DNA from: a virus
Taxonomy: Duplodnaviria > Heunggongvirae > Uroviricota > Caudoviricetes
DNA: 54,748 bases
IMG/VR virus record: IMGVR_UViG_2909303794_000001
Reading direction: 5' to 3' (one strand)
Shown: piece by piece, positions 18,001 to 21,000 of the stretch
Position numbering within the stretch: position 1 is the first letter of the stretch
Layout of the letters: every line of letters begins with the position of its first letter
Position numbers: made by a program

Positions 18001-21000
18001 GACACGTTCATCTTTGGTCATACGCAAGCAGTGAAACCACTCAAATTTGCCAACCAGATGTATATCGATACCGGCGCAGTGTTCTGCGGAAATCTCACAT
18101 TGATTCAGGTACAGGGAGAAGGCGCGTGGGCATAAGAGAACTAAACCTCACCAAAGAACAGCATGAGTGGCTGAATGGCTGGCTTGAACTGTGGGGCGCA
18201 TGGGTTTATTCAGGTCGTCTGGAAAAGCGCATGAGCAGCGTAATAGCTAAATTCATGGAGAGCGTGGAGCCGGGAAGAGTTATGACAAGGCCAATGTGTA
18301 ATGATGATGATGGAATGTTGATTTCTCAGGTCGTCGATTCCGTCATGTACATTGACAAGAAAGCCTTTGGCATCCTCCTCAGCTACTACGCCCACGGCTC
18401 TTCCAAGCACGCCATTGCATCTTACTATCATAGCGTCGCAAGACCTCGCAAGATGTTATGCCGGGGCGGCGGGCGCATTCAAAAACCATCGCTAGCAACC
18501 TGTCGACGGGAAGTTGACGAAATCCTCAATGCCTCGTTGTTTATGATTTACCCGATTCTGGATAGTGCGTTTAAAAACCGGAAACGTGTAGAGAAAATTA
18601 AGCATGTAGCATAGAACGTGTTGACATCGTTGAGCAAATGAGCAACACTATTCGCATAAGCTGCCGTTAGTGACTCTTAAGTTGCAACGGTGGCTTTTTT
18701 TATTTGGGTCAATCGTATAAAGGTCATTAGAGCCTGTAACTGTTTTTCGTCCATAAATTAACCTTCATTTGATGCTGGATTGAACATATCAAAATCAGGC
18801 AATTACACAAATCTATGTACAGGCTCTTTGTGCCTGACGTTAAAAGATTTTTTACAAGAATAATTTTGAATCAGTGAATTTGTGAACTCTTGCAACATTG
18901 ATTTCGTAACGTTATTATCCTACGCTCGGCCCTTTAGCTCAGTGGTGAGAGCGAGCGACTCATAATCGCCAGGTCGCTGGTTCAAATCCAGCAAGGGCCA
19001 CCAACCGCCATTAGCTCATCGGGATAGAACGCCAGCCTTCTAAGCAATCGGTCACTGGTTCGAACCCAGTACAACGCACCACACTTATTTTCCCTCGCTC
19101 GCTTTTGCGGACCTTTTTTGTATCCGCGCCACGCCCGGCGCATACCAACCACAGAGCCTTTCGGGGGGGAGCTTACGGAGTGGTCAGTGTGACTTTCTCT
19201 GTGGGCAGATCGCTCCCGGGCGTTGGCTCACCCACCCAAAGGAACGTCACGATGTTTGGTATTTTTGGTAAAAAAAGCCCGCAGAGCGGCAACGGAAATT
19301 AAAAAGTTTGAAAAACGCGATCTGGCACAGGCGGTGATTAACGCCGCATACCTGGTGGCCTGTGCAGATGGTGAATGTGAGGCTTCCTAGAAAGCGAAGA
19401 TCGAACAGGTACTGCGTAATCAGCCTGCGCTGTCCGCGTTTACGTCAGAAATTAATGCGATTAGCGCAACCATTATCGGTCAGCTGGATACGAACTTTAA
19501 AATTGGTCGTCGTGCGGCGTTACGTGAGATCGAGGATGTGAAACACGATACGCGTGAAGCGGAAGATGTGCTGGATGTGGCGGTGGCCATTGCGGAGGCA
19601 GACGGCGAAATTGAGCCGGAAGAGCGCAAGGTGCTGGAAGAGATTGCCGGTGTTCTGGGTCTTCGTCTGGAGAATCACCTGTGACGGTAAAACTGCGCCT
19701 GACTGTGGCTGCACTCCTGCTGTTTCTGGTGGTGATGGTGGATTTCACCAGCAGAATCATGTCGGTGCTGGCGGATGGGGTGCTGGTCTGCGGCATTGTG
19801 GTATTGCTGTGGCCGGTGATAAAAAGAAACAGCCTGCATAATGCTTGATTTTTTTGTTTGCTGTTTATTAAAAACACTTCTGCATGGTGAATCCCCCTGT
19901 GCGGAGGGGCAATCAGCGAGTAGGTATATGGGATAATCGCGGATTCAGGTGCTGGTACTGAATTCACCGGGAGGCACCCGGCACCATGCTTTGCCACAAA
20001 AGTGTTATTTCTGTTTTTCTCAAACTATCATCGTTATCCCTTTATTTCCGGCTGCGCATGGCGCGGCCTTTTTTTTACGACCAGCCACTGGCAGATGGTC
20101 ATCCTGTGATTTGATTCCGGTTCCGGCTTTTTAACTCTGTTCCTGTACACGGGAGAAATTCGATGTCGATTAAACATTATGATGTTGTCAGGGCGGCGTC
20201 GCCGTCAGACCTTGCGGAAAAGCTGACACACAAACTGAAAGAGGGCTGGCAGCCGTTTGGTAGTCCGGTGGCCATAACCCCTTATACCCTGATGCAGGCG
20301 ATTGCAGCAGAAGGTGATGTGGTGGTCAGTGGTGCAACTGAGCCGGATTGGTACTACGTCATCGTACTGGCCGGGCAGTCCAATGCAATGGCTTACGGGG
20401 AAGGGCTTCCGCTTCCGGATTCATACGATGCTCCGGATCCGCGCATTAAACAGCTGGCGCGCCGCAGTACAGTTACGCCGGGTGGGGCTGCCTGCAGATA
20501 TAACGATATTATTCCGGCCGACCACTGCCTGCATGATGTGCAGGATATGAGTACGCTGAATCATCCGAAGGCAGACCTGAGCAAAGGGCAGTACGGCTGT
20601 GTCGGCCAGGGCTTACATATTGCCAAAAAACTGCTTCCGTATATCCCGAATAACGCGGGGATCCTGCTGGTACCATGCTGTCGTGGTGGTTCTGCATTCA
20701 CCCAGGGCGCTGAGGGGACATTCAGTGCGGACACGGGGGCCAGCCAGGATTCGGCACGCTGGGGTGTGGGTAAACCGTTATATCAGGACCTGATTGCGCG
20801 CACTAAAGCTGCATTACAGAAGAACCCGAAAAATGTGTTGCTGGCGGTGTGCTGGATGCAGGGAGAGTTTGACATGAGCGCCGCCACCCACGCACAGCAA
20901 CCTGCGCTGTTTACAGCCATGCTGACACAGTTTCGTGCTGACCTCTCCGTGTTTAACGCGCAGTGCCATGGTGGCAGTGCTGCAGATGTGCCGTGGATTT

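Follow-up and report, generated by a model that had tools for sequence, protein, structure and literature searches.

The element described here is a 77-nucleotide (nt) sequence resembling a transfer RNA (tRNA) gene, located at positions 19005–19081 (+) of a 54,748-nt stretch of Caudoviricetes DNA (IMG/VR record IMGVR_UViG_2909303794_000001), which is referred to as the window. The element ends in CCA and has the sequence CCGCCATTAGCTCATCGGGATAGAACGCCAGCCTTCTAAGCAATCGGTCACTGGTTCGAACCCAGTACAACGCACCA. We are highly confident that it is a fusion pseudogene, argN'-'argO, joined from two neighboring tRNA-Arg genes by a single 90-base-pair (bp) deletion, and most likely non-functional. Our confidence in the fusion origin is above this overall level, and our confidence in the loss of function is below it. 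An earlier note on this DNA, made from the sequence alone, had described a 77-nt tRNA-like stretch one base past a tRNA with anticodon CAT. Both its coordinates and its description were accurate, position 19004 being a lone spacer A.

The origin of the element was apparent from its relatives. A search of a phage collection returned Shiga toxin (Stx)-converting phages that matched the stretch in two pieces with ~90 extra bases, and in these phages the genes ileZ, argN and argO are annotated. Comparison with the ileZ-argN-argO regions of Stx phages had been proposed as a check in the earlier note. When the window was aligned to Stx2a_F349, phage Evi and PPompW, a clean 90-bp gap was observed, and the window tracked argN (anticodon TCG) as far as the 5′ strand of the anticodon stem and then argO (TCT) from the anticodon loop on.

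The deletion was then defined at single-nucleotide level using the intact cluster of Escherichia coli EC12, which consists of ileZ, 1 nt, argN (77 nt), a 13-nt spacer, and argO (77 nt). Taking 90 bp out of the EC12 cluster in silico gave window positions 18928–19147, the only mismatched base being 19128, outside the tRNAs. An in-silico join of the EC12 genes reproduced the element as argN[1..j] + argO[j+1..77] for j = 30 to 36 only. Positions 1–36 of the element are those of EC12 argN and positions 31–77 those of EC12 argO, with no mismatches and in the same register. The six positions that fit either parent form a microhomology, GCCTTC, which covers the 3′ end of the anticodon-stem 5′ strand and the start of the anticodon loop. 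Upstream of it, the argN-derived segment holds CCGCCAT as the acceptor 5′ strand, followed by the D arm and the anticodon-stem 5′ strand as far as its third nt. Downstream of it, the argO-derived segment supplies the last two loop bases (completing TCT), the anticodon-stem 3′ strand, the variable loop, and an intact T arm, and ends with ACAACGC as the acceptor 3′ strand, then discriminator A and CCA. The deleted length equals the repeat period of the cluster (77-nt gene plus 13-nt spacer), and because of this the register was kept and the product is still tRNA-like. Both marks of a fusion pseudogene between tandem paralogues were therefore present, namely two parents joined in register and a period-length deletion with its breakpoint in a microhomology.

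Four differences from Stx2a_F349 were considered as possible decay after the fusion. This was rejected, as all four are allelic variants of intact clusters. The intact clusters of EC12 and PV15-279 carry all of them (D-stem GAAC, anticodon-stem C, T-loop C, and discriminator A), and that of DEC5B carries the two that fall within argN. The C·A mismatch in the D stem is already found in the intact argN of EC12, PV15-279 and DEC5B; DEC5B shares neither the T-loop C nor the discriminator A. Because these variants pre-exist in intact clusters, no substitution after the fusion is needed to explain the element.

The ancestral module was a tandem array of ileZ (CAT), 1 nt, argN (TCG), a 13-nt spacer, and argO (TCT). 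One deletion between equal positions of the paralogues, with its crossover within GCCTTC, removed the 90 bp. Replication slippage or short-homology recombination could have been responsible, as either would yield this fusion. The reciprocal argO'-'argN junction, which is expected from unequal crossing-over, was found in none of 5,426 complete E. coli genomes, an absence that favors neither mechanism.

A second fusion of the same genes was identified in the Stx2a prophage of E. coli JNE120393 (NZ_AP027246.1). This argN'-'argO chimera lies directly upstream of stxA2 (locus L022, ~1501–1577), is unannotated, and was called by neither ARAGORN nor the Prokaryotic Genome Annotation Pipeline (PGAP). 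Like the fusion in the window, it joins argN to argO through an in-register 90-bp deletion and gives no tRNA call. Unlike that fusion, its junction is TTAGCTCA at tRNA positions 8–15, the longest run common to argN and argO, rather than GCCTTC at positions 31–36; only its acceptor 5′ strand comes from argN, and it has another allele background and a position directly upstream of stx2a. Only ileZ is left upstream of the toxin genes in this prophage. The second chimera is independent of the window's fusion, and the fusion mechanism is thus recurrent, with both Arg tRNAs lost at least two times, at two microhomologies. The chimera with the TTAGCTCA junction was not found in IMG/VR, and for a third possible junction, GGTTCGA, the one haplotype tested gave no match.

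The structural consequences of the fusion were assessed with tRNA finders, covariance models, and fold energies. ARAGORN called a single tRNA in the whole window, the CAT-anticodon gene directly upstream, and made no call at 19005–19081, although it called argN and argO in intact loci. The element aligned end to end and in the standard register to the Rfam tRNA model (RF00005) at 19.7 bits (expectation value of 0.14 on 401 nt), compared with a gathering score of 29 bits, and all 21 RefSeq genomes with the junction leave it free of annotated features. ARAGORN was among the checks suggested in the earlier note. The element's likeness to a tRNA nevertheless greatly exceeds what chance would give, because each of its two parts agrees at every nucleotide with the corresponding stretch of a real argN or argO gene.

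In a cloverleaf layout of the element, 3 of 7 pairs form in the acceptor, 3 of 4 in the D stem, 2 of 5 in the anticodon stem, and 5 of 5 in the T stem, compared with 7/3/5/5 in argN and 7/4/5/5 in argO. The acceptor and anticodon stems cannot form because their 5′ strands come from argN and their 3′ partners from argO. In the acceptor, CCGCCAT (whose own partner is ATGGCGG) faces ACAACGC (whose own partner is GCGTTGT), and the canonical 7-bp stem is absent. The anticodon stem is mixed alike, with CCAGC from argN facing GCAAT from argO; the 7-nt loop CTTCTAA is present and the 5-bp stem is not. The D and T arms survive because the former is wholly argN and the latter wholly argO. The T stem carries the loop TTCGAAC, as in T arms with a GTTCRA-type loop, and the D stem is paired as in the intact argN allele.

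The covariance model marked unpaired positions in three stems, those of the acceptor, D arm, and anticodon arm. The earlier note had judged by eye that the acceptor and anticodon stems do not pair, which agrees with the explicit count and with the stems flagged by the model. It had also correctly described the loop CTTCTAA, the T arm, and the CCA; the loop and all that lies 3′ of it are those of tRNA-Arg(TCT), i.e., argO. Its further suggestion that the sequence might simply have been misfolded did not hold. A misfolded functional tRNA was ruled out by the end-to-end model alignment, which kept the standard register with the same stems unpaired.

Fold energies were consistent with this loss of structure. 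The cloverleaf of argN was calculated at −24.9 kcal/mol and that of argO at −21.4 kcal/mol (44.4 and 69.1 bits, respectively, on the Rfam tRNA model), whereas that of the chimera reached −1.2 kcal/mol. A stable alternative fold of the chimera was also considered and rejected. Its minimum free energy was −11.3 kcal/mol (z = +0.96), and 166 of 200 shuffled sequences folded at least as well. No alternative structure is evident, as the energy is worse than that of most shuffles.

The distribution of the fusion was examined using a 47-mer spanning the junction. It was 100% identical in 21 of the 5,426 E. coli genomes, with one chromosomal copy in each, and occurred in seven IMG/VR contigs. The 47-mer was found in none of 50,697 phage records, and a 38-mer of the chimera was not found among GTDB species representatives. 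By contrast, ~2,200 genomes had the unbroken sequence that runs from the 3′ end of argN across the spacer into argO.

The chimera occurred in at least four mosaic prophage contexts that differ upstream or downstream. It directly follows a 489-bp Q gene in the window, in 2013C-4991 (where the prophage adjoins mlrA), and in E110019. In 2013C-4830, 90-3040 and 2013C-3492, it follows an 831-bp antiterminator gene, a hypothetical gene, and a truncated methyltransferase, and in CAU16175 it follows a full DNA methyltransferase. Strain 122 has a different downstream module and discriminator G. This discriminator base was the only variation in the 77 nt across all 14 additional loci, and ileZ and ~70 nt downstream of the chimera were as invariant as the chimera itself. 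Most simply, the deletion happened once and the fused module was then passed among lambdoid prophages by recombination, as part of their mosaic exchange.

The RNA of the chimera is probably co-transcribed as a 3′ extension of the ileZ precursor, because a promoter-like site lies upstream of ileZ and the interval from ileZ to the chimera yielded no terminator. Without an acceptor/T-arm stack and a cloverleaf, this RNA would be a poor substrate for RNase P and arginyl-tRNA synthetase and would probably be degraded as a 3′ trailer. Maturation of the ileZ 3′ end would then rely on other endo- or exonucleolytic trimming, instead of RNase P cleavage 1 nt downstream. The net effect would be that the AUA-reading ileZ tRNA-Ile(CAU) is kept, and that tRNA-Arg(UCG), reading CGA/CGG, and tRNA-Arg(UCU), reading AGA/AGG, are lost. 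In a crude set of open reading frames from the window, codons per 1000 were 11.0 for ATA, 9.1 for AGA, 6.6 for AGG, and 6.9 for CGA. Such use of these codons is several-fold above E. coli genome averages.

One alternative is that the chimera is a functional non-canonical RNA kept by selection, such as an odd tRNA, a decoy that mimics one, or an element that serves the processing or stability of ileZ. We consider this very unlikely. The probable transcript in common with ileZ, the intact T arm and CCA, and the identity of the element in prophages of different backbones would all fit such a role, yet the chimera lacks a stable alternative fold and its cloverleaf is nearly without energy. Its flanks are just as invariant, so that conservation does not set it apart (and covariation is lacking), and it is rare, with 21 carrier genomes vs. 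the ~2,200 with an intact argN-argO stretch, and absent from the phage records searched. A related proposal, which we regard as still less probable, is that the chimera acts as a functional ileZ trailer or small RNA, or that the loss of both Arg tRNAs was itself adaptive. If the former were true, a structured 3′ trailer or tRNA-derived small RNA could alter ileZ maturation or titrate a tRNA-binding factor. If the latter were true, translation of AGA/AGG/CGA-rich prophage genes would be lowered in lysogens; the prophage carries NleA/NleG effector cargo. Such an advantage would explain the spread of the fused module to several prophage backbones.

Gradual decay of argO, the tRNA-Arg(TCT) gene, by point mutation in a degenerating prophage was the origin proposed in the earlier note. 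It is highly improbable, even though the loop, T arm and CCA are argO-like, the neighboring TerB-family gene has an in-frame stop (i.e., some decay nearby), and pseudo-tRNA forms of the cluster are on record for stx2i prophages (PMC13641118). The 5′ segment matches argN at each of its 30 nt and is not a mutated argO, from which the chimera differs at 12 of these 30 positions (counted by eye). Relative to an intact haplotype, no substitution is required in the 77 nt, and the cluster is exactly 90 bp shorter. The earlier note was right to suspect a dead tRNA gene, but it is not a decayed tRNA-Arg(TCT), as there are no substitutions vs. EC12 and one 90-bp deletion. An assembly or sequencing artefact has a negligible probability: assemblers can collapse tandem paralogues, but the identical runs of argN and argO (8, 7 and 6 nt) are far too short for this, and 21 complete genomes, each assembled independently, share the junction with seven IMG/VR contigs, in several contexts.

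Several points weigh against the interpretation of the element as a non-functional argN'-'argO fusion. As far as the sequences indicate, EC12 is a present-day haplotype matching the inferred parent and is not a shown ancestor. The silence of PGAP at the element served as a stand-in for pseudogene scoring by tRNAscan-SE, the program with which PGAP calls tRNAs. The invariance of the chimera could be read as conservation, although it says nothing on selection because ileZ and the ~70 nt downstream are equally invariant. Finally, the chimera appears non-functional from its structure alone (lost stems and fold energies).

The fusion is an ordinary kind of gene loss and implies no new biology. What appeared to be slow tRNA decay is really a one-step fusion of neighbors, and its value lies chiefly in annotation and interpretation. 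In lambdoid prophages of the Stx type and in those that carry effectors, one event is enough to strip the ileZ-argN-argO module of both Arg tRNAs, and prophages with the fusion would supply an AUA-reading tRNA only. This could matter where phage tRNAs are invoked for late genes, toxins or effectors rich in rare codons. The junction 47-mer is also a handy marker for tracing the module through prophage mosaics.

Table 1. Positions of the tRNA module, its parts, and adjoining features in the window.
Feature	Position	Strand	Basis or remark
Sigma-70 promoter-like site, TTGCAA-17-TATTAT, 10 nt 5′ of ileZ	18890–18918	+	Consensus scan only
Intact ileZ-type tRNA, anticodon CAT	18928–19003	+	ARAGORN call; 72.5 bits on Rfam tRNA
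Spacer A between ileZ and argN-derived 5′ end	19004	+	Same in intact EC12 and Stx2a_F349 clusters
argN-derived segment (tRNA positions 1–30)	19005–19034	+	Identical to argN (TCG) of EC12, PV15-279, DEC5B
Junction, 6-nt microhomology GCCTTC common to argN/argO (tRNA positions 31–36)	19035–19040	+	In-silico join, alignments
argO-derived segment (tRNA positions 37–77)	19041–19081	+	Identical to argO (TCT) of EC12, PV15-279
Weak hairpin and T-run, GCTCGC-TTTT-GCGGAC, C, TTTTTT	19097–19119	+	Read from sequence
TerB-family (tellurite-resistance-like) gene	19256–19684	+	Full length but for in-frame TAG 19388–19390 (codon 45)

The intact tRNA upstream of the chimera was assigned to the ileZ type because tRNA-Ile (the PGAP name) was the only annotated feature in all 16 matches that were ≥99% identical to a 261-nt stretch around it. 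The promoter-like site is a possible promoter of the tRNA module's own, and its TTGCA...TATTAT elements are kept across the differing upstream contexts that carry the chimera. The hairpin downstream of the chimera is probably the terminator of the module. It was not called by the terminator scan, and a better-paired counterpart, GGCTCGC-TTTT-GCGGGCC-T6, is found in Stx2a_F349 and DEC5B. The weakness of the hairpin in the window is unrelated to the deletion, as the intact EC12 cluster has the same variant.

The tRNA cargo of this module is variable. In phage Evi (locus L002, 743–819) and PPompW_14040 (locus L003, 728–803), the argN homologue has anticodon TTT and is called tRNA-Lys. Its acceptor and T arm are the same as those of argN, which is an apparent anticodon switch within a gene lineage, and the PPompW homologue has, in addition, lost 1 nt from its D arm. 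E. coli A34 carries ileZ, tRNA-Arg(TCT) and tRNA-Gly(TCC) at the same position (locus L023, 1436–1668), and tRNA-Gly and tRNA-Thr are annotated under the match to this region in phage JLK-2012.

The module lies between a Q-family gene, which ends at 18614, and the TerB-family gene. A frameshift at the start of the TerB-family gene was considered and rejected; the PGAP start is a TTG at the first position of the gene, and the in-frame TAG is its lone defect. The gene is intact in 2013C-4991 and E110019 and is given as ‘internal stop’ by PGAP in DEC5B and PV15-279. Further downstream, between the DUF3927 and SASA-family esterase genes, a match to the STnc100 small RNA (RF02076, 101.5 bits) was identified at 19853–20025 (+). 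This match is gapped internally relative to the model, and the copy in strain 122 (locus L012, 2670–2875) is full length at 158 bits.

By its gene content, the window is a lambdoid prophage of the effector-carrying kind, from an attaching-effacing-type E. coli, and not an Stx phage, as its right end carries NleA/NleG effector genes. Its closest match over 4 kb among the complete E. coli genomes was at 99.7%. A lambda cIII thermoregulator element (RF01804, 84.2 bits) in the early-left operon, at 6153–6211 (−), confirmed a lambda-like early region. Similarity to annotated genomes placed tail-fibre genes, an Ail/Lom-family gene, and the type III effector genes NleA and NleG at ~48000–54000. Beyond the tail-fibre and NleA/NleG region, a full-length Sib antitoxin RNA (RF00113, 142 bits) was found at 53614–53756 (−). 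Positions 51441–51539 (−) are a 99-nt inverted copy (96% identity) of 18731–18829 (+), which lies just 3′ of the Q gene. This copy lies near the right end, not far from the effector genes, and may be the remnant of another lambdoid late-region module.

Degeneration of the tRNA cluster has been recognised before. Pseudo-tRNA variants were noted in stx2i prophages (PMC13641118), and annotation differences for the cluster were noted in O157:H7 genomes (PMC5552260). The stx2i paper describes no argN-argO fusion, the comparison being made by description. No description of this particular fusion was found in the literature searched, with key older papers (933W, phiP27) outside its reach. The same literature yielded no paper naming ileZ, argN and argO together and nothing relevant on hybrid or chimeric tRNA genes in prophages.

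The closest known system is the ileZ-argN-argO cluster, named from phage 933W (gene names per AP012530.1 and other records). As the earlier note had expected, the element lies where Stx-type and related lambdoid prophages carry tRNA genes, ileZ-argN-argO being found at the same position, after the Q antiterminator gene and before the stx / TerB / nanS-p-type esterase region. In both, ileZ is identical and first in order, and alleles of argN and argO match the two parts of the element exactly. Unlike that module, the window has ileZ alone intact, a single unfoldable 77-nt fusion, and a cluster that is 90 bp shorter. The prophage also differs from an Stx-type prophage, with which the earlier note had compared it, in having TerB-family and DUF3927 genes in place of stx and NleA/NleG effector genes at the right end. 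More broadly, short homology between clustered tRNA genes gives hybrid or deleted genes, through unequal crossing-over in the E. coli tyrT tandem pair and as deletions in the phage T4 tRNA cluster. As in those cases, short homology between tandem paralogues led here to an in-register deletion and a fused gene. Hybrids of near-identical copies would leave a working tRNA, whereas the window's fusion is structurally dead because its parents are different isoacceptors with unrelated stems.

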